A stretch of 64,000 bases of DNA. Source: Escherichia coli (GTDB taxonomy: Bacteria > Pseudomonadota > Gammaproteobacteria > Enterobacterales > Enterobacteriaceae). Made by a program: the position numbers and the translations under genes. Each line of letters starts with the position of its first letter. The first letter of the stretch is position 1. This document shows positions 334 through 49,723 of this stretch, in pieces. The stretch lies in the NCBI RefSeq assembly GCF_003019035.1, contig NZ_CP027447.1; one strand, given 5' to 3'. Under the pieces are notes generated by a model. It had not been told where the DNA came from, ran no database searches, and saw nothing but the letters and a program-made list of their open reading frames with translations.

Positions 334-1094
334 GCGAGTTCTACCGCAGGGGCGGGGAATTCTAAGTGATATCCATCATCGCATCCAGTGCGCCCGGTTT
401 ATCCCCGCTGGCGCGGGGAACACTTGCAGTAGCACTTCAGTTCTGTTTTTGTCACCGGTTTATCCCCGCTGGCGCGGGGAACACGCCTGATAGCGCCTCC
501 AGCCTTCGCCCTGGTGCGGTTTATCCCCGCTGGCGCGGGGAACACTGCATAGCTTTGGCTTCTTCTTTAACGGACGCCGGTTTATCCCCGCTGGCGCGGG
601 GAACACAGTACCACTGTTTTTTCTTCGGTGCCCAGCCACGGTTTATCCCCGCTGGCGCGGGGAACACGTTTACATATTTATACCTACACGCTCAATCGAC
701 GGTTTATCCCCGCTGGCGCGGGGAACACCCGTTTTCGATTGAACAGAAAGATTTCAACACCGGTTTATCCCCGCTGGCGCGGGGAACACAATACAGACCC
801 GTTGTACGGTTTTTGCGAGCACGGTTTATCCCCGCTGGCGCGGGGAACACTTGGAAATCACCTCCCCGATCTCCGCGCTGTCCGGTTTATCCCCGCTGGC
901 GCGGGGAACACCCCTCGGCAAAAATGCCTTTTTCCTCGTCGGTCGGTTTATCCCCGCTGGCGCGGGGAACACCACGGGCCAGACGGTAGCAACAATTTTA
1001 CGGCCGGTTTATCCCCGCTGGCGCGGGGAACACCAAAACGGAAGTGCCAGTATTGCCAGAATCACCGGTTTATCCCCGCTGGCGCGGGGAACAC
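334..1094 (-). CRISPR. Type I-E CRISPR array: 13 repeats of 29 nt (terminal one degenerate), 12 spacers of 32 nt
   Basis: Exact repeat CGGTTTATCCCCGCTGGCGCGGGGAACAC starts at 395, 456, 517, 578, 639, 700, 761, 822, 883, 944, 1005 and 1066 (61-nt period). A degenerate copy at 334-362 keeps the CCGC..GGCGGGGAA core. Leader and cas2 lie on the high-coordinate side, so crRNA sense is the minus strand. Confidence 0.97.
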
Positions 1095-1190
1095 ACTAAG
1101 CATACGTATCTGTTTTTAAACAATTTTATTCCACATCAACAATCTACCAACTAAATTCAAACATTTCCTTATTTTTAAAGAACGGGTAAC
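1095..1190 (-). promoter_or_regulatory. CRISPR leader (AT-rich) between first repeat and cas2
   Basis: AT-rich 96 nt between the newest repeat and the cas2 stop; contains AACAATCTACCAAC at 1138-1151, also found in the second array's leader. Confidence 0.6.
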
Positions 1191-2400
<1,210 letters not shown>

Positions 2401-2404
<4 letters not shown>

Positions 2405-3051
2405 GCCTCTGCTCCAGGTTTGATCAGCATCAGACCACAACCGAACGCCCGGCTTTTGCCATACCCCTGACTGAGACGTTGCAGAAATAACCCAGGATCG
2501 GTGACCGTAAGCATCCCCGTATAATCCACGCTACTGAACTGGATCAGTTGCCGGGAGTTTTCCCGCCGCAGTTGCTGTTGTCGGTAGGCATCAACCGAAG
2601 TATCCAGCAGTGTAAAACCGCTTCTCTCCCCCTGCGCTGCCAGCCAGTCCAGCGCCGCCTGTTGTTGATGCAACCAGACATTTCTTCCTTCCGCCTGCCC
2701 CCTCACCTGCCGTTTCGCCTCCATCAGCAGATCGTGGCGCTTACCCGCTTTACAGACTGTTGGATTCGCCCGCAGGTTGAAACAAAGGGATTGTCCGGTA
2801 TGCAGTTCAGGCGCAAATGACCGGCATTCGATGGTGAACGTTTCACTTTCCGCCGGGCGTTCCTGCGACAGGACAAAAAAGCGAAACGCGCCCTGGAGTT
2901 CTTCCCGACGATAAAGAAATTGCCTTTCTTTGCCGCCAGGAAAAAGATCCCACAGCCACTGATGCATCACATATTCACCGCGATCCACCAAATGCAGCAA
3001 CTGCGCAGGCGAAAGCTGACCGGTATGTAAGGTTATTCTTGAGAGGTACAT
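2401..3051 (-). CDS. casE: CasE / Cas6e crRNA endoribonuclease
   Basis: Frame of ORF 2401-3189; conserved start MYLSRITLH at ATG 3051 preceded by GGAGG; the upstream extension in the track would overlap casD. Confidence 0.85.
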
Positions 3052-3779
3052 GGTTCCTCCTTGCTGAGCCACGGCCCCTGATTGACGGTGCGTTCCCCAA
3101 ACAGCCACTGCTGACGATTTAAAGGAACATCCCGGCGGCGTAATATTTTGCTCGAGACCAGGCCATCGTGCTCCCCTTCCCACCAGCATTCATCCTGAAG
3201 TTTCGGGAGTGAGACTTTCAGTTCGTGGAAACGATCCTGATACTGTTGGTATGCGTTACGTAAGGCATCAGACGCGTTACCTTCAAGCAGTAACGGCGCA
3301 AGGGGTAATGCCAGCGGATGGCTTTTTCGCCCCAGATAAAGCGGAAAAGCCGGATGGCGTAAACCTTCCTGCAACTGTTCGAGGCTGTAAGGCGCATCAG
3401 CTGTTGTTGCCACGGCCACCATCCACCAGGCATCGGTGTAGTAGTCGCGCCGGGAGATAATCGCGCTTAGAAGATCAGGGTCGCTCAACTCTTCGCGACG
3501 GCTGAAATAACGCGCTTTACGCACCTCTTTTGGCATCTGGACCGTGTGATAATCCCGTGCCCAGCGCGGGTTACGGCTGGCGCAAACCACCAGTGAATAG
3601 TGGCGATTAAACGCGTTTAAGCATTCGGTGTCATCACGCCGTATCCCTACCCCGGCAGCCAGCAGCCCCAGCAATGCTGAACGCGAAGGCAGTTCATGGG
3701 TATGACGCACCTCACCGGGTGCATCAACGCCCCAGGATGCCATTGGCCCATGAAGCTGAAAAATCAGATATTGGCTCAT
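3033..3779 (-). CDS. casD: CasD / Cas5e Cascade subunit
   Basis: 248-aa ORF between casC and casE, N-terminus MSQYLIFQLHGPMASWG resembles Cas5e (MRSYLILRLAGPMQAWG in K-12); operon position. Confidence 0.82.
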   Translation of the reverse strand: MSQYLIFQLHGPMASWGVDAPGEVRHTHELPSRSALLGLLAAGVGIRRDDTECLNAFNRHYSLVVCASRNPRWARDYHTVQMPKEVRKARYFSRREELSDPDLLSAIISRRDYYTDAWWMVAVATTADAPYSLEQLQEGLRHPAFPLYLGRKSHPLALPLAPLLLEGNASDALRNAYQQYQDRFHELKVSLPKLQDECWWEGEHDGLVSSKILRRRDVPLNRQQWLFGERTVNQGPWLSKEEPCTSQE

Positions 3780-3789
3780 AAGCCGCCCC

Positions 3790-4845
3790 TTACGCGCAGA
3801 TAAAGTCCAGCACGTCCTTCATGCTTCCCTGTTTGTTCATCACGTCAAAACTTGCGCATTCGGTCTTCTGTTCGTAAACCGTATTCATGTTTTCGCGAAG
3901 CGTTGTAATACGCTGCACCGCCACATCTAACTGACGTGTGCCATTAATGGGTTCATAGAAAGCCGCCGCCAGAGAACGCGGTTGTTCGGTGCCTTTTTCT
4001 GCCAGCGCCCAGGAGGCGTAGGCACGGCTGGCAAAGCTGTTTTGTTTACCGGTTGGGGAAACTTTAAACGCTGCTTCCGTAAAGGCGCGCAGGGTCTGAT
4101 TAGCTAATGCTTCGTCACCGCCGAGGTTTTCGACCAGCAGATCTTTATCAATGCAGATATAGGTGTAGAACAGCGCAGAACCAAATCCAGTTTCACCAAG
4201 ATGCCCTGCACCAGCATCTTCAGAGGCCTGGCGCAAATCATCAACGGCGGTGAAAAAATCATCTTCGACAATCGTTTCACTGACACCAAATGCATGCGCG
4301 ACCTGGCAGGCGGCTTCAACATTAAATTCGGGTTTATTCGCCAGCATACGACCAAACATAGCGATATCTACCGCCATGCGATCTTTACGTAACAAAGCGA
4401 GATCTTCCTCTTTTGGCGCGCGCTTTTCTTCGGCCAGTTGATGGGCCAGCGCTTTTACGGCGTCAAATTCTGCCGGGCTGATATGGACGAGCTGTTCAGT
4501 TTCGGCGTTAGTGAGCGGATCTTTTGGTTTTTTGTCGTTTTTAGCTTTCCCAAGATAATCCGCAATTTTTGCCGCCCATTCGATGGCTTTTTTCTCTTCG
4601 ATGCCTTTCTCAATCAGGATAGTTGCCGCCTCACGCGCAATACGCCCACTGCGAATACCAATATGGCCCGCCAGTGCCTGTTCAAAAAGTGCAGAAGTGC
4701 GCCACGCACGTTTCAGACTTTGCGAGGAAACGCGCAGACGCGTTGCTCCACCCAGCACCACGGTTTTCGGCGCACCGGTGTCATCACGGTTAAGGTTGGC
4801 TGCAGGGTAAGCGGTTAACAAATGAAGCTGAATAAATGTCGTCAT
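3790..4845 (-). CDS. casC: CasC / Cas7e Cascade backbone subunit
   Basis: 351-aa ORF, N-terminus HLLTAYPAANLNRDDTGAPKT...LRVSSQSLKRAWRTS matches Cas7e family. Confidence 0.88.
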   Translation of the reverse strand: MTTFIQLHLLTAYPAANLNRDDTGAPKTVVLGGATRLRVSSQSLKRAWRTSALFEQALAGHIGIRSGRIAREAATILIEKGIEEKKAIEWAAKIADYLGKAKNDKKPKDPLTNAETEQLVHISPAEFDAVKALAHQLAEEKRAPKEEDLALLRKDRMAVDIAMFGRMLANKPEFNVEAACQVAHAFGVSETIVEDDFFTAVDDLRQASEDAGAGHLGETGFGSALFYTYICIDKDLLVENLGGDEALANQTLRAFTEAAFKVSPTGKQNSFASRAYASWALAEKGTEQPRSLAAAFYEPINGTRQLDVAVQRITTLRENMNTVYEQKTECASFDVMNKQGSMKDVLDFICA

Positions 4846-4859
4846 GAGATAGTCCTTTA

Positions 4860-5396
4860 TTAATTTTGTTCGTTATCGGCGTCGCCAGCCTGGTAATATT
4901 CCAGCGCCCAGCGGATACGGATAAATTCTGTTGGCCGCTGCTGACGGCGGTGATGGTTGAGCAGGTCGTCACTCTCCTGGCACCAGCGGAAAATATCGTC
5001 TGCCAAAGAGATAAGATTGACGGAACCGTTTAATAATTTGACCGCGCGACGTAACTGGCGCAGTAAATCATCCGGCGTTTTGACTGCCGACAGGCGAGTA
5101 AAACGCCCCTCAGACATTACCGCCGCCAACTGCGCGGCAAAAGGCTGCCGTTCATCAATGGCTTTTACATTGGCGGCAACGGCGGCAACCAGCGCCAGTG
5201 CGGTAAAACGCCACTCCTGTGATTCAATTTTCCACAACGTGTGGGTCTGCATCAGCAGAGAACGAAAACCTTCTGACAGACAAACATCATTAACCGTTGT
5301 GCTACGCCGCAGACTGGCACGATTGCCGCGTTTTTCCTGCAACTCTTCGAGCCATTTACGCAGCGTGGCTTTGTGCTCCTCTTTTACAATACTCAT
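4860..5396 (-). CDS. casB: CasB / Cse2 Cascade small subunit
   Basis: 178-aa ORF in the Cse2 slot between casA and casC; sequence is divergent from the K-12 CasB I remember, so the call rests mainly on position and size. Confidence 0.72.
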   Translation of the reverse strand: MSIVKEEHKATLRKWLEELQEKRGNRASLRRSTTVNDVCLSEGFRSLLMQTHTLWKIESQEWRFTALALVAAVAANVKAIDERQPFAAQLAAVMSEGRFTRLSAVKTPDDLLRQLRRAVKLLNGSVNLISLADDIFRWCQESDDLLNHHRRQQRPTEFIRIRWALEYYQAGDADNEQN

Positions 5397-6961
5397 TCAG
5401 CAGCCTCCTGCTTTTTCTCCCTGGCGGCTTTAGCACTTTGCTTCTCCGCCGATGTTGTAAAATATTTCTTGCGCGCGGTCATGACGCGTTTCAAATCAAC
5501 GGGCTCATAAGGATTGGTGAATACCCGCTCGTCAAAATCCTGACGCGCGAATAACCACATTTCCTTTTGCCATTTGCTGAGTAATTCATCCGGCTCCTGA
5601 CCTTCTTCAATTTGACGCACTAACCTCAGGAAGCGATGCTGAGTTTTGTTCCAAAAGTCGATATCCACAAAACTGAAATCACCCCGTGCACCTTTTGGAT
5701 CGGAGAACCATGCTTCTTTCAATGCACTCCGTAACAGACTTAGAATCCGTGAAGCCGTTTGCGCAGCCAGCCGCAGCTTTGGTATCTGGCCTTCTTTTTT
5801 ATTGAGCAGCAGCGGGAAATGGTGTTCGTACCAACAGCGCGCTTTCATGTTGTCAAAATCATAACCAAATCCCCATAGGCCCACTTTTGCCTGTTTCAGA
5901 CTGCTGGCATTAAAGAGTTTCACCACCAGCGCGGGAAGTTCCGTATTGTTTTCTGATTTACCCGTTTCGATAAGGCCTAACCAGTCGCGCCAGATTAAAC
6001 CGCCCGGTTGTGGTTTAACGGAGTAAAACTCGCCACCCTCTTTAAGTGGTACACGGTAAGGCGTTAAGGGATGCTGCCACATGGCATAATTGGCACCATA
6101 ATTTTTGGTCGTCATCAGGCTCAGGAGCGCGTCGTTCTGCTCGTCGCAAATATCGCAGTTGCCGACTGTCGTGGTATTAAAATCAATACGTATACGCCGC
6201 GGCATTCCCCAGTACGCCTGGAGTTTATTGACCTGATCATGGGTTACCACCGCACCGGCCAGTTCGCTGGTACGCGTCGGGCCTAGCCAGGGGAAAATCA
6301 GATCGTCAAATTTTTTGGGTAGCGGTAAGTCGGCTTCATCCTGCGGCATCACGTTGAGCCACAGTTTGCGCCACAAGGGTGTTTGTTGATTGCCCTGATA
6401 TTCCTGTAATTCAATGAGAGTCGTCATCGGCCCACCGCCGCGTAAACCGGTGCGATAGCCTTTGCCGCCCGCGGGTGCATTCAACTGTAAAGAGAACAAG
6501 GCCAATGCTAAGCAATGGGGGCACAGATATTCCGTTACACCCCGCTTGATAAAATGGTCTTTATTAAACTTCGTCGTTTGAAAGCCGGGAATCTCAGGCA
6601 GTAGCGAAGCGACCGGAACTTTATCTCCCGTGAGCGCCTCAAAATCCTGCATAAATGAAGATGAATCAGGCCCAAACTGGAAAGCATGTTCTAAAGACAG
6701 CAATGCTTCTCGTAGCTTTTCAGCTTCCAGTCCGTCTTCCCAGATATCATCCCAACGACGATGATCTTTTGGCGCGAAGCTGGTTTGTAGTAGTCCCAGC
6801 AAAAACTGCCAGGCCGCACCTTGTAAATCTGCTCGCGGTGCGGCGATATCGACAACATTCTCATCAGCCAGATCGACTGATGCCAGCTTGCCTGTCGTTC
6901 CGTCTTTGAAACGAACAGGCAACCACGGGGTTGTCAGAAGTGAAAACGAGTTCATACGCAT
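5393..6961 (-). CDS. casA: CasA / Cse1 Cascade large subunit
   Basis: 522-aa ORF with a GLRGG motif (GKGYRTGLRGGGPMTT) as in Cse1; position between cas3 and casB. Confidence 0.82.
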   Translation of the reverse strand: MRMNSFSLLTTPWLPVRFKDGTTGKLASVDLADENVVDIAAPRADLQGAAWQFLLGLLQTSFAPKDHRRWDDIWEDGLEAEKLREALLSLEHAFQFGPDSSSFMQDFEALTGDKVPVASLLPEIPGFQTTKFNKDHFIKRGVTEYLCPHCLALALFSLQLNAPAGGKGYRTGLRGGGPMTTLIELQEYQGNQQTPLWRKLWLNVMPQDEADLPLPKKFDDLIFPWLGPTRTSELAGAVVTHDQVNKLQAYWGMPRRIRIDFNTTTVGNCDICDEQNDALLSLMTTKNYGANYAMWQHPLTPYRVPLKEGGEFYSVKPQPGGLIWRDWLGLIETGKSENNTELPALVVKLFNASSLKQAKVGLWGFGYDFDNMKARCWYEHHFPLLLNKKEGQIPKLRLAAQTASRILSLLRSALKEAWFSDPKGARGDFSFVDIDFWNKTQHRFLRLVRQIEEGQEPDELLSKWQKEMWLFARQDFDERVFTNPYEPVDLKRVMTARKKYFTTSAEKQSAKAAREKKQEAAE

Positions 6962-7044
6962 CCTCTCGTAAAAAAGACCATCCCTGGTCGGTTGTCCATC
7001 CTTTTTTGTGTATCAACTATTCAGAGAATCCTGTCGCAGACATC

Positions 7045-9744
7045 TCAACCAACCTTGCCAATCAATCCCTCCGTAGCCGAATACCCACAACTTTCGTCAT
7101 CGGTGACTAAAATCACGTTTGCCATCTCCGGATCATGCCGCTGTTCAACGCACCACTGCCTGAACGCATCCCCTTCCAGTAAAGAAAACTCATCCCGATG
7201 TTTTTTCCACCAGCTTCGGCGCACTCTGACAACGCTCATTTCCCATGCGTGTGCACCTGTGGCATAAGGCTTCACCACACCGTCAATACAGGTAGCCAGC
7301 CACAGGGAAACAGACTCTTCAGCCAGACGTGTCGACAGTTTTTCCGGGAGGTAATCGTTGATATTGGCGGCATAGCCGGGCCTGAAGTTCAGTACAAACT
7401 TTTTAGCCATTGCGCGATCGCAGTAATATTTGCCCACTTGCTCCTGCTCGCTGCGGGCAAACCCTTCCGGCATTACTACGTCCTCACCGTAGACTGATTC
7501 AATCAGAAGCCGGGCTGAGTGTGGCATCTGAATAGCACCTTGCTCACGCAGCACACGCTGCGTCAGCCAGATTCGCCCATGATCGGGATAGACAAATGCA
7601 CTGTTACGCATGGCACTGCCAAACCATTCGTCACCCGGAGAGTCGTCCCAGACGGGGGCCAGAATCAGCAATTCAGGAGGGTGACGCTCGTCTTTACCGT
7701 CACGCTTTAACTGGCCATTCATATCGCGGATATGTCGCTGTAATCGCCCTGCTCGCTGGATCAGTAAATCAACAGGGGCAAAGTCGGAAATCATTTCGTC
7801 CAGGTCGCAGTCAACGCTCTGCTCCAGGACTTGAGTACAAATGAGGACTTTTCCGGCACGCTGTGAACAGTCTTCTTTACCAAAGCGTGCCAGCGTCTCC
7901 GTTTCAATTCGCTGGCGATCGCTAAAAGCAAAGCGGCTATGAAAAAGTGAAAGGCTGGAAGCAGGAATGACGCCGCGGGCAAGTAACTGACGATGAACCT
8001 GGATGGCGTCATCGACAGAATTTCGGATCCAGGCGATACATTTCCCCTGACTTACCGCCGATTCGATACGCGCAATACACTCTTGTTCGCTATGAAGCCA
8101 ACCCACACTCACGCTGCGCTCAACGTCTTTGCGCGTCGCTACCCGGTGTGAATGCACATCGGATTTCGTAACGTGCGTCAGCCAGGGGTAATCATCCTTT
8201 TCCAGGAACGGAGCTTCTTGCTGGCCCTCTATACCACGCGCAAAGGCAGCAACGAGTTTGTCGCGCTGCTGTTGAGATAACGTGGCAGAAAGCAAAATGA
8301 CGCTGTTTCCGCCACGCGCCTGCCGCTCGATCAGCCCTTCAAGAATGCATGACATGTAAGCGTCACAGGCATGGATCTCATCAGCCAGCAGGATTTTGTT
8401 ACTCAGTCCCAGAAGCCGCAGATTATTATGTTTGAACGGCATCACAGCCATCATCGCCTGATCCAGCGTGCCGACGCCAATTTCAGCCAGTAGCGCCTTC
8501 TTGTTACTGTCGGCAAACCAGGCCGCACATCCCTGACTGCACGTTTGTTCATCCGGTTCTTCTGACCCGACTAAATCACCGGACCAGAGTGATTCATTAA
8601 AGCGGTCCATTAATGTTCGGGCACTGTGTGCCAGCACCAGGCTGGGGCGGGACTCTGGCGAATAGAAAGCAAGCCAGGTTTTGACCAGTCGATCGTACAT
8701 GGCATTGGCCGTTGCCATTGTTGGCAGGCCAAAAAACAAACCCTGCGCTTTCCCCGCAGCCATCAACCTGTGCGCCAGGATAAGCGCCGCTTCTGTTTTA
8801 CCTGCGCCGGTTACATCCTCCAGAATAAATAACTGTGGTCCCGGCTGGCTGATATCCAGATCCAGCACCTTTTGCTGTAGCGGTGTCGGATTCTCAATAA
8901 AAGGAAACAGCGTATTAATTCCGGTGAAAGGCGCGCTTTCTGCTTTTGGAGGAAAGACGGTTAAGGCGTTTTGAGCCTGAACTAAAGTTTTCTGCCAGTA
9001 ATCTTCAATATCCATTGTCTGTGCGACGCGTGGAAAATATCGCGTTGACGATCCCGTCCAGTCTGCAAGTACGACGGTTGCAGAGATATACCAGGAAAGT
9101 TGTTTTATAAGTTCAACGCCCTCGTCATCATCCCAGAATGTGGGGATCTCTATGAGCGGAAACAGTACCTTGATTGCAAGGAGAAAATCTCGTGCGGCAC
9201 CTTTGTCTTCAGGCAGAAAATTATCCAGTTCATCCATACGCTCAGGGGGTCGACCATGATGCCCGGTAGTCATGGGCATCCACATCTCCATCACCCGTTT
9301 AAGTTTGCGCGGAGAGAGTGAAGATGAAGGAAGCAACTCCTGACATTCACTTAAATAATGGTTCCACAACCAGTAGCCCAGCGTTGAATGAGAGATCTTT
9401 TCGTAATTCTTTCTTGCGCCTTCCGGAACCTTGAGTTGTGGGTGCAGGTAAAGTTGCTGAAAAGAGCGGGCAAATTTTCCAATATCGTGCCAGCACAGCA
9501 GCCAGGCGAAAAATTGTGCTGCCAGCTCCGTGTCAGCGAAACCTAATTGACGAAAATAGTCAGCCAGTCCGAAGCAATTGCTTTTAACCATTAAATAGCC
9601 CATCGCGGCTACATCCAGCGAATGCCAGCAAAGAAGGTGATAGTCGTCACCACCCTCTTTCTCGCCGCGTCGGGTTTTTCCCCAGAAATCAAAAAAAGTC
9701 ACAATATTTTTATCCTTCAGTAAACTTAAAGGATATTTACGCAT
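7045..9744 (-). CDS. cas3: Cas3 HD nuclease / DExH helicase
   Basis: 899-aa ORF with N-terminal HD region (HSLDVAAMGY...WHDIGK), Walker A DVTGAGKTEAAL and DEIHA box. Confidence 0.95.
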   Translation of the reverse strand: MRKYPLSLLKDKNIVTFFDFWGKTRRGEKEGGDDYHLLCWHSLDVAAMGYLMVKSNCFGLADYFRQLGFADTELAAQFFAWLLCWHDIGKFARSFQQLYLHPQLKVPEGARKNYEKISHSTLGYWLWNHYLSECQELLPSSSLSPRKLKRVMEMWMPMTTGHHGRPPERMDELDNFLPEDKGAARDFLLAIKVLFPLIEIPTFWDDDEGVELIKQLSWYISATVVLADWTGSSTRYFPRVAQTMDIEDYWQKTLVQAQNALTVFPPKAESAPFTGINTLFPFIENPTPLQQKVLDLDISQPGPQLFILEDVTGAGKTEAALILAHRLMAAGKAQGLFFGLPTMATANAMYDRLVKTWLAFYSPESRPSLVLAHSARTLMDRFNESLWSGDLVGSEEPDEQTCSQGCAAWFADSNKKALLAEIGVGTLDQAMMAVMPFKHNNLRLLGLSNKILLADEIHACDAYMSCILEGLIERQARGGNSVILLSATLSQQQRDKLVAAFARGIEGQQEAPFLEKDDYPWLTHVTKSDVHSHRVATRKDVERSVSVGWLHSEQECIARIESAVSQGKCIAWIRNSVDDAIQVHRQLLARGVIPASSLSLFHSRFAFSDRQRIETETLARFGKEDCSQRAGKVLICTQVLEQSVDCDLDEMISDFAPVDLLIQRAGRLQRHIRDMNGQLKRDGKDERHPPELLILAPVWDDSPGDEWFGSAMRNSAFVYPDHGRIWLTQRVLREQGAIQMPHSARLLIESVYGEDVVMPEGFARSEQEQVGKYYCDRAMAKKFVLNFRPGYAANINDYLPEKLSTRLAEESVSLWLATCIDGVVKPYATGAHAWEMSVVRVRRSWWKKHRDEFSLLEGDAFRQWCVEQRHDPEMANVILVTDDESCGYSATEGLIGKVG

Positions 9745-9938: not shown

Positions 9939-10091
9939 CTACTTCTTCGATTCGTAAGCGAGAACCGCCTTAAACTCCATACCACGTTCTCTGATACTCA
10001 ACTCACACAACGAGTCGCCTACCATCAGCGTGAATCCCAGTACTGTAAAACACAGCACTATGATTGCCACAAGGGCATATTTTGTCAGCAT
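9939..10091 (-). CDS. Hok/Gef-family type I toxin (50 aa), not in ORF track because under 60 aa
   Basis: Hand translation of minus strand from ATG (complement of 10089-10091) to TAG (complement of 9939-9941): [50 protein letters not shown]. Hydrophobic N-terminus plus SLCE...AYES tail is the Hok signature; GGAGG 7 nt upstream. Confidence 0.78.
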
Positions 10092-10295
10092 GTCTTGCCT
10101 CCCTGCAAAGAAGAGACTAACATTCGAATTGTTTGGGTTCGAACGCTGGCCTCAGGTTGATAGAAATATCGCCTGGGGCTTTTGTCCATCTGGAACCTCG
10201 CGAATGCTTAACGCCAGACAGCCTCAAGCACCCAACGCCATTCTATACCTGTTAATTCTTCCAACGACGTTCACGTTTAAAATCAGGAATGCTGC

Positions 10296-26149: not shown

Positions 26150-26194
26150 GTGAGGAAGACCGGGCGGGAAACTGCCCGGCCTGAACATACCTGA

Positions 26195-26343
26195 ATGGTT
26201 ATCCCCGCTGACGCGGGGAACATAAGTTCGACAACTTAAAAAATGATAACAAGTCCGGTTTATCCCCGCTGATGCAGGGAACATAATAAAAACTTTAACT
26301 AGTTCGGTTTATCCCTGTTTTTACAAGGAATATTAACTACACT
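26195..26343 (-). CRISPR. Decayed orphan CRISPR remnant: 3 degenerate I-E repeats, 2 spacers
   Basis: Repeat-like units at 26195-26223, 26256-26284 (CGGTTTATCCCCGCTGATGCAGGGAACAT) and 26315-26343 (CGGTTTATCCCTGTTTTTACAAGGAATAT); spacers 32 and 30 nt. Confidence 0.7.
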
Positions 26344-26786
26344 CGATGTCTTTAGAATAAAAGACAATACGAATCGCACTTTATCAATTTTCACTTAAAG
26401 TATGAACTGGATATCTTTATTCATAAGAACTATTCATCAACAGCCTATAGAGGCGGTTATGTAAAACCACTCATTAGCCTCAAAACAAAGACAAATTTCC
26501 AGATTTATTACTTAATCAATGAATAACAAGCTTAAAAAATACACTGTTATTCTAAAGAAAAAATTAACAGGCATTAATTAATATTAAAAAAATAATAGAT
26601 TAAAATTTCTTAACGGTTTAAGGATTATACAAATAACACTTTGATTAAATTTGATTTTTTGTATCGATAATTGTGAACTTATCTGGCATGGAGAACTATT
26701 TTGAACATGAGGTGTTATGTGGATATGTTGCTTATTACAAGTACAGCTAATATAAAAACTTGAGAAAGAGATAACGGGTTATATGG

Positions 26787-27059
26787 TGGTTTATCCCCGC
26801 TGGTGCGGGGAACTCTTGGCATAGGCGCTATAGCGGCGCTCTGTGTCCGGTTTATCCCCGCTGGCACGGGGAACTCGTTGGTGCCGTTGTTGTAACCGTA
26901 GAAACCGACGGTTTATCCCCGCTGACGTGGGGAACTCGCAGGTCAACACGGGCGATAAACCCGGCTGACCGGTTTATCCCCGCTGACGTGGGGAACTCGA
27001 TAAGCAGATTGCAGAACTACAGGCGAAGGACGGTTTATCCCCGCTGACGTGGGGAACTC
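26787..27059 (-). CRISPR. Orphan type I-E CRISPR array: 5 repeats, 4 spacers
   Basis: 29-nt repeats at 26787, 26848, 26909, 26970 and 27031 (61-nt period), consensus CGGTTTATCCCCGCTGRCRYGGGGAACTC; ends in ...AACTC rather than the ...AACAC of the cas-proximal array. Confidence 0.95.
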
Positions 27060-27200
27060 TCTAAACATAACCTATTATTAATTAATGATTTTTTAAGCCA
27101 GTCACAATCTACCAACTTTACAGGATCACACAAACAACACATCCATTATGTTAAAGAACACTTAATCCATTGATTAAAAAAGTAAATATTTAAAATAACT
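27060..27200 (-). promoter_or_regulatory. Leader of the second CRISPR array
   Basis: AT-rich; CTAAACATA... start and CACAATCTACCAAC at 27104-27117 parallel the first leader at the same distance from repeat 1. Confidence 0.55.
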
Positions 27201-28241: not shown

Positions 28242-28844
28242 ATGCTCAGGATATTCATCGTAATTATATTTATTGTCAATTTATCAGGCTGTGGATATAA
28301 CGATATTCAAACCTATGATGAGCAGGTTAACGCCTCCTGGTCTGAGGTATTGAATCAATATCAACGTCGCGCCGATCTTATTCCTAATCTTGTCGCCAGT
28401 ATTAAAGGTTATTCCAGCCATGAACAAGAGGTACTGGAAGCCGTAACATTGGCACGTAGCCAGGCTAATCGCGCCAGTAGCGATCTTCAGCAAGCTCCGG
28501 GAGATGCGCAAAAATTACAAGCCTGGCAACAAGCCCAGGCGCAGGTGTCTCGCACTCTCGGTCAGTTAACGATAATTAGTGAACGTTACCCTGAGTTAAA
28601 AGCTCAGGAACTCTATCAAAACTTAATGGTACAGCTCGAAGGAAGTGAAAATAGAATTGCCGTTGCGCGAGGAAGATATATTAAAGCCATTGAACAATAT
28701 AATGTCACTATCCGCAAATTCCCCGCTGTATTAACCGCAAAGGTCATGGATTACACACCAAAGAAAAATTATTTGCCGGATGATGTCACCGCAGTAAGTA
28801 AAGCCCCAACAATAGATTTTAGCCAGAATGCTAATGCGCATTAA
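28242..28844 (+). CDS. LemA-family lipoprotein
   Basis: 200-aa ORF with signal peptide and lipobox (LSGC), then a LemA-like helical region (NASWSEVLNQYQRRADLIPNLV). Confidence 0.85.
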   Translation: MLRIFIVIIFIVNLSGCGYNDIQTYDEQVNASWSEVLNQYQRRADLIPNLVASIKGYSSHEQEVLEAVTLARSQANRASSDLQQAPGDAQKLQAWQQAQAQVSRTLGQLTIISERYPELKAQELYQNLMVQLEGSENRIAVARGRYIKAIEQYNVTIRKFPAVLTAKVMDYTPKKNYLPDDVTAVSKAPTIDFSQNANAH

Positions 28845-28857
28845 GCGGGGAAGTTCT

Positions 28858-29751
28858 ATGCGAAATTTTATCTTCCTTATGGCTTTCTTCTGTTCATCTG
28901 TGTTTGCCACACAAATTCCAGTACCTGAATCCCCCAAGTATGTGAATGACTTAACCGGCACATTAACAAACAGCGAAGTAAACACCCTGACCAACCAGAT
29001 TAAAGCCCTGACGCAAAAAAACCACGCACAGTTGGTCGTGTTAGTGGTTGATACAACAGGCGATGAAACCATCGAGCAGTACGCAACGCGGGTATTCGAT
29101 AGCTGGAAACCGGGTGATAAAGACCGCGATGATGGCGTTCTACTGTTAGTCGCCTGGCAGGATCATACCGTGCGTATTGAAATCGGTTACGGACTGGAAG
29201 GTATTATTACGGATGCACAGTCCGGGAAAATTATTCGCAACAGTATTATTCCGGCATTTAAAAAAGGCGACCTGGCTGGTGGTTTACAAAAGGGGATCAA
29301 CGATATTGAAAGTCGCCTGACGGGGAATAATTCAGCAACGATAACACCGACCGATCACCCTTTGCCCTTTAGCGGTTGGTGGGCTTTGTTAGTCTGGGCG
29401 ATAATACTGACGTTTATTTCTGCCAGAGGATATATCAAAACGCTGGGACTGATTTGCTTCGCAGCTATTGTACTGGCCTTTGTTTTACCTATAGCAGGTT
29501 TCAGCGGAAGCTGGGGAGTGCTCGCAACATTACTCTGCTTCGCCACACCGTTCCTGGCTGTCGCCATCGCTTTTACTCCCTTCGGCAAAAAGGTTCGGGA
29601 TTCGATGCGTAATACCAACCAGCCATCACGCCATACAAGAAGTAATTCTTCCTCCCACTATTCGTCATCGTCATCCTCTTCATTCGACAATGACAATTTC
29701 CGCGGTGGTGGCGGTTCATCTGGTGGCGGTGGCGCTTCCGGACGCTGGTAA
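28858..29751 (+). CDS. TPM-domain membrane protein (YgcG-like), paralog 1
   Basis: Frame of ORF 28828-29751; start at MRNFIFLMAFF (signal peptide) after GGGGAAG; TPM core ([24 protein letters not shown]), 2-3 TM helices, Ser-rich linker and tail [15 protein letters not shown]. Confidence 0.85.
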   Translation: MRNFIFLMAFFCSSVFATQIPVPESPKYVNDLTGTLTNSEVNTLTNQIKALTQKNHAQLVVLVVDTTGDETIEQYATRVFDSWKPGDKDRDDGVLLLVAWQDHTVRIEIGYGLEGIITDAQSGKIIRNSIIPAFKKGDLAGGLQKGINDIESRLTGNNSATITPTDHPLPFSGWWALLVWAIILTFISARGYIKTLGLICFAAIVLAFVLPIAGFSGSWGVLATLLCFATPFLAVAIAFTPFGKKVRDSMRNTNQPSRHTRSNSSSHYSSSSSSSFDNDNFRGGGGSSGGGGASGRW

Positions 29752-29765
29752 CAAAAGGAATTGAT

Positions 29766-30914
29766 ATGCGTATTTTTCTCTTACTTCTGATGCTATGCGG
29801 TTTTCAGGTATTCGCTGAACAATTGCCTTCAGTAACTGACTTAACCGGGACATTAACGACAGAAGAACAAACTGCTTTAAATCAACAATTACAGACTCTC
29901 GAGCAGCAAAACCACTTCCAGGTGGCCGTGTTGGTTACGCCGACTACAGGGGGCAAAAACATTAAACTTGCAGCCTCGCAGAGATACGGGTTATATCACT
30001 GGAAACCCGTTGGAGAGAAGCGATATGGCGAAGGTATCTTAATTCTCGTCGTATGGCCGGAAGGGCTGGCGTCAATGAAGATTGGACATGGACTGGAACA
30101 GATGTTGCCGCCAGAACAAGCTGCGCAAATTGTTCGTTACCATATGCAGCCAGAATTCGAAAAAAGCAATCTCTTTGCTGGATTAACGGGCGGAATTGAA
30201 AGCATCGCACAGTTTACCCATATCAAAGCGAACCTTAGCCCTTTGGATGCTTTAGCCAATCATCTGTTTGCTAATCCACAACGTTCGCTGCCATGTCTTG
30301 CCTGGACACTGCTGATGATCGTTGCCATCGTTGTCCTCTGGCGATTTACCAGCCGTCCTGGGCCTGGCATATGGATGATATCGATGATTACCCCTATGGT
30401 CTGGTTTTTCTTCTTTCAGGATGATGTCATCATTCGGCGGGTGTCGATCGTTTGTTTTAGTTTATTGTTAGCAACAACCTGCTGGCAGCGTCTCGCGGTA
30501 GTTTTTAATATGTGCCGCGCATTTCCTATGATGCTGGCCCCCAAAAATAAAAACACTAAAGTGAAAAAACAAAAGAAGACCCAGCAATTTCCTGAATCAG
30601 GACGAAATTCATTGTTTGTCGTGATGCTGATAATTGTTGTGGGATGGTGCCTGGTGTTCGCCAGTAATAAAGATATTGCATTCATCTCAACAATTATTGG
30701 GTTAATTGATCATTTTATCGGCCCAATAACCATTGCTGGCATCGTTCTGCTGATCATTGTGGCCAAATTTACTGGCAATCTTAAACTGGGGTCAGGAGAA
30801 AAAAGCAACAGGAAAACGGGGAATCGTAATGCTCATTCTCGCTCTTCGTCGAAAAATTCTTTCCGCGGTGGCGGCGGTTCTTCAGGAGGCGGCGGTTCAT
30901 CCGACCGTTGGTGA
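29766..30914 (+). CDS. TPM-domain membrane protein, paralog 2 (extended multi-TM insert)
   Basis: 382-aa ORF: signal peptide, TPM core, about 5 hydrophobic segments, lysine-rich linker, tail [17 protein letters not shown]. Confidence 0.85.
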
Positions 30915-30919
30915 TCGTT

Positions 30920-31792
30920 ATGCGTATAATCCTTTTTCTACTCACTTTATGGTGCCTTCCTGTGCTTGCCCAGCAAATTGCTGTGCCGGAGCTGCGCCAA
31001 CAGGTGACCGATATTACTGGTACCTTAAGCACGTCTGAACAACAATCACTAACACAACAGCTGCAGGATATTACACAAAAAACACGGGCACAGGTCGCTG
31101 TATTAATAGTGCCATCCACCGGAGACGATTCTATTGAACAATATGCTACAAGAGTTTTTGACAATTGGCGTTTAGGAGATGCCAAACGTAATGATGGGAT
31201 ACTGATCATTGTTGCCTGGTCGGATCGTACTGTCCGCATCCAGGTAGGTTATGGGCTGGAAGAAAAGGTAACCGATGCTCTGGCTGGCAATATCATCCGT
31301 AGCATCATGATACCCGCCTTTAAAAAACAAAAATTAGCTAAGGGATTAGAATTAGCTATAATCGCTTTGAATAACCAACTCACTTCACAACACCAATATT
31401 CGTCTAATCCTTCAGAAAGTGAATCAGCGTCTTCCAGTGATCATTACTACTTTGCTATTTTTTGGGTATTTGCAGTGATGTTCTTCCCTTTCTGGTTTTT
31501 TCATCAAGGCAATAATTTTTGTCGGGCATTTAAAAGCAGTGTTTGTATTTCAACAGTCTATCTTATAGATTTATTCCTGTTCTCCGATCAAACTTTTTCC
31601 ATTGCTGTATTTTCCTTCTTTTTTACTTTCACCACCATTATGGTCTTTACCTGTTTATGTGTACTTCAGAAAAAAGCATCTGGTAGAAGTTATCATTCAG
31701 ACAACAGCGGTTCCGGTGGCGGCTCAAGTGGCGGCGGATTTAGCGGCGGGGGCGGTTCTTCTGGCGGTGGCGGCGCGTCCGGTCGCTGGTAA
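30920..31792 (+). CDS. TPM-domain membrane protein (YgcG-like), paralog 3
   Basis: Frame of ORF 30908-31792 (track start is a TTG at 30908; first ATG at 30920); TPM core close to paralog 1, tail ...[15 protein letters not shown]. Confidence 0.85.
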
Positions 31793-35101: not shown

Positions 35102-35893
35102 TTAGAGATCAATTTCCTGCCGTTTTACCTGTTGCCAGACTTCTTCCATTGTTTCGAGGTCAACACCTGTCATTTCCAGTCCACGCGCGGCAACAATACG
35201 CTCCACTTCGCGAAAACGACGCTCGAATTTTTCGTTCGCTTTTTGCAATGCAATTTCCGCTTTTGTCCCTAAATGACGAGCCAGATTGACCGTGGCAAAC
35301 AGCAGGTCGCCCATTTCCTCCTCCAGTTTAGCCTGGTCGATAACAGCCTGCCGTGCCTCGTACATCACCTCGTCGATCTCTTCGTAGACTTTATCGACTA
35401 CCGGACCAAGCGTCGTCCAGTCGAAACCAACGTTGGCGCAACGTTTCTGGATTTTTTGCGCACGCATTAAAGCCGGTAAACTACGAGGAATATCGTCCAG
35501 CGCCGAATGCTGCGCTTTCTGCGCGCGCTCTTCGGTTTTGATTTGCTCCCAACGGGCAAGCACTTCACTACTATTTTCGGCAGAACTGTCAGCAAAAACA
35601 TGCGGATGGCGACGCTCTAATTTATCGCTGATCGCGGCGCAAATATCATTAAAGTCAAAGCGCCCTTCTTCCTGGGCCATTTGTGCGTAAAACACCACCT
35701 GGAACAGCAGATCGCCCAGTTCACCGCGCAGATCGTCAAAATCTTCACGGGCGATGGCGTCCAGCACCTCGTAGGTTTCTTCAAGGGTGTAAGGCGCAAT
35801 GGTGGCAAATGTCTGCTCTTTATCCCACGGGCAGCCGTTTTCCGGATCGCGCAGGCGCTGCATAATAGTGAGCAAACGGTCGATTTGATTCAT
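35102..35893 (-). CDS. mazG: Nucleoside triphosphate pyrophosphohydrolase MazG
   Basis: 263-aa ORF with tandem MazG domains (EETYEVLDAI..., EEMGDLLF). Confidence 0.95.
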   Translation of the reverse strand: MNQIDRLLTIMQRLRDPENGCPWDKEQTFATIAPYTLEETYEVLDAIAREDFDDLRGELGDLLFQVVFYAQMAQEEGRFDFNDICAAISDKLERRHPHVFADSSAENSSEVLARWEQIKTEERAQKAQHSALDDIPRSLPALMRAQKIQKRCANVGFDWTTLGPVVDKVYEEIDEVMYEARQAVIDQAKLEEEMGDLLFATVNLARHLGTKAEIALQKANEKFERRFREVERIVAARGLEMTGVDLETMEEVWQQVKRQEIDL

Positions 35894-35964
35894 TAGAATG
35901 TCCTGAAAATTGCGGGTCTGTCAGGTGGAAACCTGTGACCAGAATAGAAGTGAGTTAGTAACAC

Positions 35965-36300
35965 CTACCCAATCAGCACGTTAATTTTGGCTTTAATGAG
36001 TTGTAATTCCTCTGGGGCAACTGTTCCTTTCTTCGTTGCTCCTCTTGCCCGCCAGGCGATACTTTTTACCTGATCAGCTAACGCTACGCCATCACGTTCC
36101 TGACCGGATAGAACAACTTCGAACGGATATCCTTTTGATTGCGTTGTACAAGGAACACACAGACACATACCTGTTTTGTTGTTGTACATGAACGGACTCA
36201 GGACAACAGCCGGACGATGTCCGGCTTGCTCGCTACCTTTTGTCGGGTCAAAATCAACCCAAATCAGATCGCCCGTATCGGGTACGTATCGGCTTACCAT
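35965..36300 (-). CDS. mazF: MazF mRNA interferase toxin
   Basis: 111-aa [39 protein letters not shown]... matches MazF. Confidence 0.96.
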   Translation of the reverse strand: MVSRYVPDTGDLIWVDFDPTKGSEQAGHRPAVVLSPFMYNNKTGMCLCVPCTTQSKGYPFEVVLSGQERDGVALADQVKSIAWRARGATKKGTVAPEELQLIKAKINVLIG

Positions 36301-36548
36301 TACCAGACTTCCTTATCTTTCGGCTCCCCCCAGTCGATATTCTCGTGGAGGTTTTCCGGCGTGATGTCGTTGACCAGTTCAGCAAGCGTAAATACGGGCT
36401 CTTTACGCACTGGCTCAATAATTAATTTTCCATCCACCAGGTCAATCTTCACTTCATCATCAATATTCAGATTGAGCGCCTGCATTAACGTAGCCGGGAT
36501 CCGCACTGCAGGAGAATTTCCCCAACGCTTTACGCTACTGTGGATCAT
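36300..36548 (-). CDS. mazE: MazE antitoxin
   Basis: 82-aa [30 protein letters not shown]... (AbrB-fold antitoxin); stop overlaps mazF start. Confidence 0.96.
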
Positions 36549-36625
36549 AACCCTTTCCTCAAACCGCTATCATATGTAGATACAGTATATATCAATCTAC
36601 ATTGTAGATACGAACAAGTTTCGGC

Positions 36626-38860
36626 CTAACTCCCGTGCAACCGACGCGCGTCGATAACATCCGGCACCTGGTTGAGTTTACCCAGCACGCGCCCCAGCAC
36701 TTGCAGGTTGTAAATCTCAATGGTCATGTCGATGGTCGCCAGTTGCTGTTTGGTGTCGCTACGGCTGGCAACGCCAAGTACGTTCACCTTCTCGTTGGCG
36801 AGAATGGTCGTGATATCACGTAACAACCCACTACGATCATTAGCCACCACGCGGACCACCAGCGAATATCCGGCGGAGTAGCTCTCGCCCCATACCGCGT
36901 CAACAATGCGTTCTGGCGCATGGGAGCGCAGTTCCGCCAGTTGTTCGCAATCGGCGCGGTGTACTGAAATACCGCGCCCCTGGGTAATGAAGCCGACAAT
37001 CTCATCTCCAGGAATCGGCTGGCAGCAGCGCGCGATGTGGTGCATCAGGTTACCGACACCTTCTACCACCACACGACCGTTATCTTTACTGCGGTTTTGC
37101 GGCGTGTAGCTTTTTTGCTGAAGCTGTTTCAGCGCGGCGGCATCCTGCTCTTCGGCACTCGGCTTATTAAATTGCGATTGCAGGAAGTTCACCATCTGAT
37201 TGAGACGGATATCCCCGCCACCAATCGCCGCCAGCAACTCGTCGACATCATTGAAGTTGTAACGCGGCAGCAGGTGTTTTTCTGCTTCTTTCAGGCTGAT
37301 CCCCAGATGTTCCAGCTCGTCGTCAAGGATTTGCCGCCCAGCCAGAATGTTTTTGTCACGATCCTGTTTACGGAACCAGGCGTGAATTTTCGAGCGCCCA
37401 CGACTGGTTGTGACGTAACCGAGATTTGGGTTTAACCAGTCACGGCTGGGGTTCGGCTGTTTCTGGGTGATAATTTCAATCTGGTCGCCCATCTGCAGCT
37501 GGTAGGTGAACGGCACAATGCGCCCGCCAATTTTTGCCCCGATGCAGCGGTGTCCGACATCACTGTGGATGTGGTAAGCGAAGTCCAGCGGTGTTGATCC
37601 CGCAGGCAAATCAACGACATCACCTTTCGGCGTAAAGACGTACACCCGGTCGTCAAAGACCTGGCTACGTACTTCGTCGAGCATTTCGCCGGAATCAGCC
37701 ATCTCTTCCTGCCACGCAATCAGTTTACGCAGCCAGGCAATCCGGTCTTCATGTCCCGAACGTGCGCCGCCAGCTGCCGCGCCCTCTTTATATTTCCAGT
37801 GCGCAGCAACACCCAACTCTGCATCTTCATGCATCTGTTTAGTGCGGATTTGGATCTCAACGGTTTTGCCACCTGGTCCCAGAACCACGGTATGAATAGA
37901 CTGATAACCGTTTGGTTTCGGGTTAGCGACGTAATCGTCAAACTCATCCGGCAGGTGGCGATAGTGAGTGTGCACTATCCCCAGTGCGGCATAACAATCC
38001 TGTAAACGCTCGGCGACAATACGTACCGCACGCACATCAAACAGCTCATCGAAGGCGAGGTTCTTTTTCTGCATTTTGCGCCAGATGCTGTAGATGTGTT
38101 TCGGACGACCATACACTTCAGCTTTAACGCCTTCAGCTTTCATCTCAGCGCGCAGATGGCCGACAAACTCTTCGATATAGTGTTCGCGGTCGAGACGGCG
38201 TTCATGCAGCAGTTTTGCGATGCGTTTGTATTCGGTCGGGTGGAGATAACGGAAGCAGTAATCTTCCAGCTCCCATTTCAGTTGTCCAATCCCAAGACGG
38301 TTCGCCAACGGCGCGTAGATATTGGTGCACTCTTTTGCCGCCAGTACGCGTTCATCTTCCGGCGCGTCTTTTACTTCGCGCAGATGAGCAATACGCTCTG
38401 CCAGTTTGATGACCACGCAGCGAAAATCATCGACCATCGCCAATAACATCCGGCGAACGTTATCGACCTGTTCGGAGGAAACAGAATCGGTATGCGTCGC
38501 TTTCAGCTGGCGGATCGCCGCCATATCACGCACGCCGTGAATAAGGTTAACGACCGACTTACCGACGCTCTCACGCAGCACATCTTCGCTGACTACGTTG
38601 GCATCGGCCAGAGGGAACAGCAGCGCCGCCCGCAGCGTGTCAATGTCCATACTTAATGTCGAGAGGATCTCCACCATCTCAACACCACGCCACAATAACA
38701 GACTGGCATCCGGATGCCCCTGCGTCTGTTGCAGACAATACGCCCAGGTTTCGGCTAAGCACTCACACGACTTCTGGCTGGTAATACCCAGACTTGCGAT
38801 CCATTTTTCCGGATCAAATTCACCAGCCTTATTGATATGTGCACTTCTTACCGCAACCAT
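36626..38860 (-). CDS. relA: GTP pyrophosphokinase, (p)ppGpp synthetase I
   Basis: 744-aa ORF with the RelA N-terminus MVAVRSAHINKAGEFDPEKW..., synthetase, TGS and ACT regions. Confidence 0.98.
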   Translation of the reverse strand: MVAVRSAHINKAGEFDPEKWIASLGITSQKSCECLAETWAYCLQQTQGHPDASLLLWRGVEMVEILSTLSMDIDTLRAALLFPLADANVVSEDVLRESVGKSVVNLIHGVRDMAAIRQLKATHTDSVSSEQVDNVRRMLLAMVDDFRCVVIKLAERIAHLREVKDAPEDERVLAAKECTNIYAPLANRLGIGQLKWELEDYCFRYLHPTEYKRIAKLLHERRLDREHYIEEFVGHLRAEMKAEGVKAEVYGRPKHIYSIWRKMQKKNLAFDELFDVRAVRIVAERLQDCYAALGIVHTHYRHLPDEFDDYVANPKPNGYQSIHTVVLGPGGKTVEIQIRTKQMHEDAELGVAAHWKYKEGAAAGGARSGHEDRIAWLRKLIAWQEEMADSGEMLDEVRSQVFDDRVYVFTPKGDVVDLPAGSTPLDFAYHIHSDVGHRCIGAKIGGRIVPFTYQLQMGDQIEIITQKQPNPSRDWLNPNLGYVTTSRGRSKIHAWFRKQDRDKNILAGRQILDDELEHLGISLKEAEKHLLPRYNFNDVDELLAAIGGGDIRLNQMVNFLQSQFNKPSAEEQDAAALKQLQQKSYTPQNRSKDNGRVVVEGVGNLMHHIARCCQPIPGDEIVGFITQGRGISVHRADCEQLAELRSHAPERIVDAVWGESYSAGYSLVVRVVANDRSGLLRDITTILANEKVNVLGVASRSDTKQQLATIDMTIEIYNLQVLGRVLGKLNQVPDVIDARRLHGS

Positions 38861-49363: not shown

Positions 49364-49723
49364 AATAAAAAAAGGGAGCACTGTATTCACAGTGCTCCCG
49401 GTTCGTTTCGCAGCATTCCAGCTACTTTTGTTGCTCCCTGCTCATCCTTGACAACTTTTCCTCTGGCCTTGCGGCCAATCGTTCATCCTGAACTATTGCT
49501 TCCTGCTCACACCACCCCGATGTGATACTTCATCCTGAAGTGTCCCTGGCCTTCCTGACCCACCGAATCATCCTGACCGGTTCTCATTCTCCATCCTGGA
49601 GGTGTCCTTTAACGCGTCCTGCGTCATCCTCTTCGCTTCATCCAGAAGCCTTTCCCTGAAACACCATCCTGGTGTGTCCTTCAGAAGTGTCATCATCCTG
49701 ATGTTCACTTCGTTGTCTGACTC
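49364..49723 (-). ncRNA. csrB: CsrB, CsrA-sequestering small RNA
   Basis: Minus strand begins GAGTCAGACAACGAAGTGAACATCAGGATGATGACAC... and carries many CAGGATG/AGGA loop motifs (seen as CATCCTG on the plus strand); ends in hairpin GGGAGCACTGTGAATACAGTGCTCCC plus T-run at 49364-49410. Confidence 0.92.

Follow-up and report, generated by a model that had tools for sequence, protein, structure and literature searches.

In Escherichia coli K-12 the mechanism of the mazEF toxin-antitoxin module is established in its principal steps, i.e. cleavage of RNA at ACA by the toxin MazF, assembly of a MazF2-MazE2-MazF2 complex with the antitoxin MazE, degradation of MazE by ClpAP and Lon, and autorepression. 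The roles proposed for the module comprise a stress response or programmed death, phage exclusion, and that of a selfish inserted cassette. A relA-mazEFG operon has been described and the role of the chromosomal mazEF is disputed (PMC7167474). The same PemK/MazF toxin fold and AbrB-type antitoxin families recur in chpBIK (ChpS/ChpB), R100 pemIK and R1 parD (Kis/Kid). Each E. coli chromosome holds about 33 toxin-antitoxin loci (PMC7232551), and hokX has been described at a position adjacent to cysH (PMC7232551, PMC12736100).

A stretch of 64,000 nucleotides from the E. coli contig NZ_CP027447.1, hereafter the window, was analysed in relation to these systems. Positions 35965-36548, bounded in the ORF list by the minus-strand mazE start codon and mazF stop codon, almost certainly carry the canonical chromosomal mazEF (chpA) type II toxin-antitoxin module of E. 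coli, intact and in its standard position. Within the relA-mazE-mazF-mazG transcription unit mazE comes second and mazF third, and in the six-frame ORF list relA, mazE, mazF and mazG appear as four successive minus-strand genes with the following layout:

36626-38860, minus strand: relA, (p)ppGpp synthetase of 744 aa, first gene of the operon (ORF; Pfam HD_4, RelA_SpoT, TGS and ACT; annotated relA)

36549-36625, minus strand: relA-mazE intergenic region of 77 nt, predicted mazEF promoter/operator (inverted repeat; near-identity to K-12, from which knowledge of the role derives)

36300-36548, minus strand: mazE, antitoxin of 82 aa, intact (ORF, Pfam PF04014, NCBIfam NF007312, PDB, annotated genomes)

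35965-36300, minus strand: mazF, endoribonuclease toxin of 111 aa, intact (ORF, Pfam PF02452, NCBIfam NF007386, PDB)

35894-35964, minus strand: mazF-mazG spacer of 71 nt, with no minus-strand terminator-like site (alignment of the window, K-12 and a mazEF-less O25:H4 genome)

35102-35893, minus strand: mazG, nucleoside triphosphate pyrophosphohydrolase of 263 aa, last gene of the operon (ORF, Pfam, NCBIfam, annotated mazG)

The assignment of the two proteins is supported by family models as well as by structurally characterised references. MazE reaches both the Pfam family MazE_antitoxin (PF04014; 52.9 bits, cut-off 24.7) and the MazE equivalog of NCBIfam (NF007312; 196.2 bits, cut-off 113), and MazF likewise reaches PemK_toxin (PF02452; 85 bits, cut-off 23.1) and the MazF equivalog (NF007386; 226.4 bits, cut-off 120), while MazG scores 133.9 bits against Pfam MazG and 419 bits against NCBIfam TIGR00444. 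The crystallised E. coli MazE (PDB 1MVF_D) is identical to the window protein at 82/82 residues (E=4.8e-52) and E. coli MazF (PDB 3NFC_A) at 110/111 residues (E=1.5e-72), the sole difference being M9T. At the nucleotide level, the 751 nt from 35900 to 36650 show 100% identity to DNA annotated as mazF/mazE/relA in many RefSeq E. coli genomes. Reading of the ORFs gave zero frameshifts and zero internal stops in mazE and mazF, and the antitoxin gene is located directly upstream of the toxin gene, overlapping it on the same strand, with the pair situated between relA and mazG. An earlier note on this DNA had placed a mazEF pair here, inside a relA-mazEFG operon. Its coordinates are exact and Pfam, NCBIfam and PDB all agree with it; on their common strand relA precedes the pair and mazG follows it, across gaps of 77 and 71 nt, and the comparison with reference MazE and MazF which it proposed yields the identities given above. 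Its judgement that novelty is low, mazEF next to relA being the known arrangement, was also correct. Similarity of this extent to mazEF is far beyond chance, and no result of the analysis contradicted the identification.

The window pair also gives weak secondary matches to ChpB (55 bits), ChpS (35 bits) and Kid (E=7.8e-9). The paralogue ChpS/ChpB was nevertheless rejected, since its models score below their own cut-offs and far below the scores of the MazE and MazF equivalogs, and its genomic location differs; the locus is mazEF proper. A 146-aa plus-strand ORF at 36139-36579, together with other plus-strand ORFs, was discarded as a shadow of mazEF, such ORFs being unannotated in the related genomes inspected.

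The stop codon of mazE and the start codon of mazF share one base in the sequence TAATG (junction CTGGTAATGGTA), and this one-base overlap fits a putative translational coupling of the two genes. The intergenic region upstream of mazE contains a perfect inverted repeat, ATGTAGAT/ATCTACAT, at 36574-36581 and 36595-36602, by which a palindromic operator is predicted at 36574-36602, and a ribosome-binding stretch, GAGGAAAGGG, is located ahead of the mazE ATG. Compared to K-12, two bases differ in the 77-nt region, both relA-proximal and outside the palindrome. Its promoter/operator role is established for K-12 and is presumably carried over by this sequence identity. The promoter and an "alternating palindrome" operator were reportedly mapped experimentally in K-12 by Marianovsky et al. 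in 2001, and by sequence identity both may be expected to apply here. A sigma-70 consensus scan of the region upstream of mazE returned a single minus-strand match. Its -10 hexamer overlaps the mazE ATG, and it was taken as spurious. Overall the scan gave 2 matches, which does not exceed the 4.0 expected from shuffled sequence. The predicted promoter function rests on identity to K-12. No terminator-like sites were found on the minus strand between relA, mazE, mazF and mazG, and their absence, combined with the short spacers, fits the published relA-mazEFG transcription unit as the probable arrangement. With regard to hidden RNA elements, an Rfam scan of the whole window at gathering thresholds identified CsrB and sok alone, and both strands between 34800 and 39000 gave no match even at a permissive threshold (E up to 1). 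The CsrB small RNA is full length (49364-49723, minus strand; Rfam RF00018, 382.9 bits) and is located between syd and yqcC, downstream of barA, which encodes the sensor kinase controlling csrB expression.

The 99-100% identity to the characterised K-12 proteins suggests that MazF activity, its neutralisation by MazE and autoregulation also apply to this locus. MazF would then function as a ribosome-independent endoribonuclease, the ACA cuts of which in single-stranded RNA would arrest translation and growth. MazE would form a labile dimer of the AbrB fold whose acidic C-terminal tail threads over the MazF dimer, and MazF held in the MazF2-MazE2-MazF2 complex (1UB4) would be inactive. Degradation of MazE by ClpAP and Lon would make a steady synthesis of MazE a requirement for keeping MazF silent. 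Binding to the palindrome in the mazEF promoter, by MazE and with greater strength by the MazE-MazF complex, is predicted to repress transcription.

In order to describe the distribution of the module, a query of 1901 nt spanning mazG to relA was compared to 5426 complete E. coli genomes. All except one (5425) match the query and 4415 cover at least 80% of it, i.e. about 81% of complete E. coli genomes carry the mazEF cassette, while some 1010 genomes (19%; O25:H4 strains, for example) align in two pieces, with relA directly adjoining mazG. The three-way alignment of K-12, the window and O25:H4 shows that the missing segment begins immediately past the relA stop codon and ends about 35 nt short of the mazG start. 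The mazG-proximal 35 nt or so of the mazF-mazG spacer are common to the genomes without mazEF and mark the downstream edge of the cassette, which in these genomes is replaced by about 60 nt of unrelated sequence. Such a replacement is found in the relA-mazG spacer of the O25:H4 strain 18044 (positions 595-689 of its locus, L002), where about 60 nt unrelated to the mazEF cassette (..TTAATCTTACATAGCTGGATATGGCGTCAGCCGTATCCAGCGATATC..) include an imperfect inverted repeat, GCTGGATA.../...TATCCAGC, which could be a REP-like element or a terminator. The missing segment takes with it the mazEF promoter, and mazEF therefore behaves as a self-contained cassette. This presence/absence pattern agrees best with an inserted element that need not be linked in function to relA or mazG. 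The empty-site polymorphism between relA and mazG is already published; in UTI89 and like strains relA and mazG form an undisturbed bicistronic operon, and mazEF is considered to be without functional link to the flanking cistrons (PMC7167474).

An alternative is that mazEF is an integral and co-evolved part of a stringent-response operon, in which ppGpp produced by RelA shuts off transcription of mazEF and thereby triggers MazF, with MazG limiting the response. This model was proposed in older literature, as summarised in PMC7167474, and would accord with four genes on the same strand, separated by short spacers devoid of terminator-like sites. However, relA is followed directly by mazG in about 1010 of the 5425 genomes, the absent segment removes mazEF together with a promoter of its own, and the review itself denies a functional link to the other cistrons (PMC7167474). 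A co-evolved role in the stringent response is therefore unlikely, although it has more in its favour than the other alternatives considered below, and the reading as an inserted, self-contained cassette is preferred.

The single amino acid difference from the reference MazF was evaluated against the codon differences of both genes. Relative to a K-12-lineage genome, mazE shows 5 codon differences, all 5 of them synonymous, and mazF 6, of which 5 are synonymous while one, ATG to ACG, gives M9T. Ten synonymous differences thus stand against one non-synonymous in the pair, a pattern (10/11) which indicates purifying selection as the probable regime for both genes. The two alleles were counted in complete E. 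coli genomes with 33-nt queries centred on the SNP, for which every 28-nt megablast seed contains the SNP. T9 was found in 490 genomes and M9 in 3919. The carriers of T9, about 11% of the mazF-bearing complete genomes, include the type strain DSM 30083, and T9 is a common natural allele. The residues E24, R29 and T52, read from the translation, are all present in the window MazF; in K-12, R29 and T52, and also E24, are reported to be needed for RNA cleavage. In NRG857c a 'classic MazEF close to relA' has been reported, with a MazF 99.1% identical to that of K-12 (PMC7232551), and its allele is probably the same as the T9 found here.

It might be argued that M9T lowers the toxicity of MazF or alters its binding to MazE, and that mazEF is present in the window as a functionally weakened, decaying or domesticated module. 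M9T is the sole protein difference from the reference, T9 is the minority allele (490 genomes vs 3919), and loss of chromosomal toxin-antitoxin modules is frequent, mazEF itself being absent from about 19% of E. coli genomes. This reading is still very improbable, as E24, R29 and T52 are intact, T9 occurs in hundreds of genomes in which both frames are intact, and the 10/11 synonymous codon differences are those expected under continued purifying selection. MazE is moreover unchanged, and a toxin which still needs its antitoxin is the simpler explanation. Residue 9, which precedes the first beta strand, is presumably variable within the family (R in Kid and EndoA), and this too counts against weakening. 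It is even less probable that T9 differs functionally from M9, for instance in its toxicity, its affinity for MazE or its response to proposed modulators, or that the toxin-antitoxin loci flanking the cas/CRISPR region help to retain or back up CRISPR immunity; no result supports either reading. An intact, canonical mazEF carrying a common natural allele is the preferred interpretation.

The window contains, at a distance from mazEF, a CRISPR-Cas system and a type I toxin-antitoxin locus, the earlier note having pointed out that mazEF and hok both lie within 30 kb of CRISPR-Cas:

395-1095, minus strand: CRISPR array 1, 12 repeats of CGGTTTATCCCCGCTGGCGCGGGGAACAC with a 61-nt period (repeat search)

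1191-9744, minus strand: type I-E cas2-cas1-cas6e-cas5e-cas7e-casB-casA-cas3 operon (ORFs collinear with the SCU-301 annotation, 99.1% DNA identity)

9939-10233, minus strand: hok/sok type I locus at the hokX/sokX position, between cas3 and cysH (Pfam, Rfam, annotation beside cysH)

26184-27060, plus strand: CRISPR array 2, between ygcE and queE (repeat search; CRISPR annotated at the corresponding place in SCU-301)

The proximity is real, 26.2 kb lying between mazF and cas3 and 8.9 kb between mazF and the second array. The 61-nt period of array 1, located beside cas genes, fits the 29-nt repeats and spacers of about 32 nt of a type I-E system, the Cas assignments following from collinearity with SCU-301. 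Array 2, the more degenerate of the two, comprises five repeats at 26776-27060 and a further two, standing apart, at 26184-26285; the variants CTGACGTGGGG and CTGGCACGGGG occur among its degenerate repeats. The isolated repeats lie 531 nt from the main block, a distance that does not correspond to a whole number of 61-nt periods, and in SCU-301 the counterpart of 26787-27059 alone is annotated as CRISPR. The cas operon is a non-K-12 type I-E variant, with a cas2 of 97 aa and an annotated cas1 of 924 nt vs 94 aa and 918 nt in ST648; two type I-E variants have been described (PMC12736100).

The presence of a second toxin-antitoxin system in the window is likewise verified, mazEF and hok/sok both being intact. 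The hok gene is an intact ORF of 50 aa (9939-10091, minus strand; Pfam HOK_GEF 43.1 bits, cut-off 22), the start of which is overlapped by a mok-like ORF of 34 aa (10085-10189). An Rfam sok match (RF01794) of 111.1 bits, against a gathering score of 59, covers 10076-10233, and the locus thereby combines a Hok/Gef peptide gene, a mok-like frame and a 5' sok element, as in hok/sok type I systems. The sok match is reported on the same strand as hok. About 195 bp separate hok from the start codon of cas3, i.e. from its 5' end. Most of the matching genomes that were sampled have a 'Hok/Gef family protein' annotated beside cysH, and 3369 genomes cover at least 80% of the query for the hok locus beside cysH. 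Genomes of the K-12 lineage match the cysH-proximal 45% of the hok stretch alone, in which the sokX remnant is kept.

In SCU-301 and ST648 the annotated gene order is iap-CRISPR-cas-hok-cysHIJ-queD-ygc genes-CRISPR2-queE-ygcG-eno-pyrG-mazG-mazFE-relA. SCU-301 and the window are collinear; their identity is 99.1% in the left 25 kb and reaches 100% both across mazG-relA and in the right 24 kb. The lower identity on the left side suggests recombination or a faster divergence in the cas/CRISPR segment. ST648 was rejected as a whole-window template; it agrees with the window from eno to the right, while the left part differs in cas variant, array lengths and a lemA/TPM insertion. This insertion comprises lemA (28242-28844, plus strand; Pfam LemA 165 bits) followed on the same strand by three tandem genes for TPM-domain proteins (28828-29751, 29766-30914 and 30908-31792), each protein having a Gly/Ser-rich tail that ends in (A/S)S(G/D)RW. 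The same four lemA/TPM genes are carried by SCU-301, while ST648 has the last TPM gene (ygcG) alone, the window holding about 2.5 kb extra between queE and ygcG. A further difference concerns gudX, annotated as frameshifted in ST648 (L001 44614-45955) and intact in the window-collinear SCU-301.

The earlier note saw the interest of the locus in the co-occurrence of the two toxin-antitoxin systems with CRISPR-Cas. The proximity stands, as shown above, but it reflects the standard E. coli map, as annotated in SCU-301 and ST648, and is not special to the window. With 33 loci per genome, two toxin-antitoxin loci in one 64-kb window have a rough Poisson probability of about 0.07, which is unremarkable. 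The proximity of toxin-antitoxin loci and CRISPR-Cas is ordinary E. coli synteny, and the loci are independent residents of a conserved chromosome segment; each has a fixed place on the chromosome that had been described before, and no sign of a functional link between them was seen. The PADLOC scan of MazE, MazF and MazG matched no family, and a classification of mazEF as an anti-phage defence system was rejected for lack of support from this library. Coupling of the CreTA kind was not found either, mazEF being 26 kb from cas3 and a separate indel, and the frequencies of hok/sokX and cas being different.

One might still read mazEF and hok/sok near CRISPR-Cas as a functional defence island, in which the toxins support CRISPR immunity through abortive infection or render the cell dependent on retaining the cas genes, given that hok lies some 195 bp from the 5' end of cas3, that mazF is 9-26 kb from CRISPR components, that CreTA modules safeguard cas genes in other organisms, and that a role of mazEF in phage exclusion has been reported. 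This is the least credible of the alternatives, as the elements vary independently (hok with sokX in about 90% of a urological E. coli collection, type I-E cas genes in 46%; PMC12736100), mazEF forms its own indel between relA and mazG (the alignment above; PMC7167474), mazEF and cas3 stand about 25 kb apart with housekeeping genes in between (cysHIJ, queD, ygc genes, queE, eno, pyrG), PADLOC is without a defence-system model for MazE, MazF and MazG, and two toxin-antitoxin loci per 64 kb are about the chance level (P about 0.07).

The mazEF locus and its layout are hence already known, and the only protein change relative to the reference belongs to a common natural allele. As mazEF is among the most studied toxin-antitoxin modules and the window holds a near-exact copy of the reference, the value of the result is little beyond a correct annotation. 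The coordinates hold no unusual toxin-antitoxin system, and the window may be used as a positive control for scans that recognise known modules of this type.

Compared to known systems, both toxin-antitoxin loci of the window thus have close counterparts. The second locus occupies the exact hokX/sokX position beside cysH, with an intact Hok of 50 aa and an Rfam sok element, whereas K-12 keeps sokX alone. Its mechanism is unrelated to that of mazEF, a membrane peptide toxin being under the control of an antisense RNA. The spacing between hok and mazF is the same as that between hok-5 and mazF-2 in NRG857c, about 25 kb (PMC7232551). The closest counterpart of the locus under study is mazEF of K-12 (chpAI/chpAK; 1UB4, 1MVF, 3NFC, 5CR2), with which it shares gene order, position, the one-base overlap and the promoter palindrome, MazE being 100% and MazF 99.1% identical, and from which it differs in one MazF change (M9T), ten synonymous changes and two relA-proximal intergenic bases.
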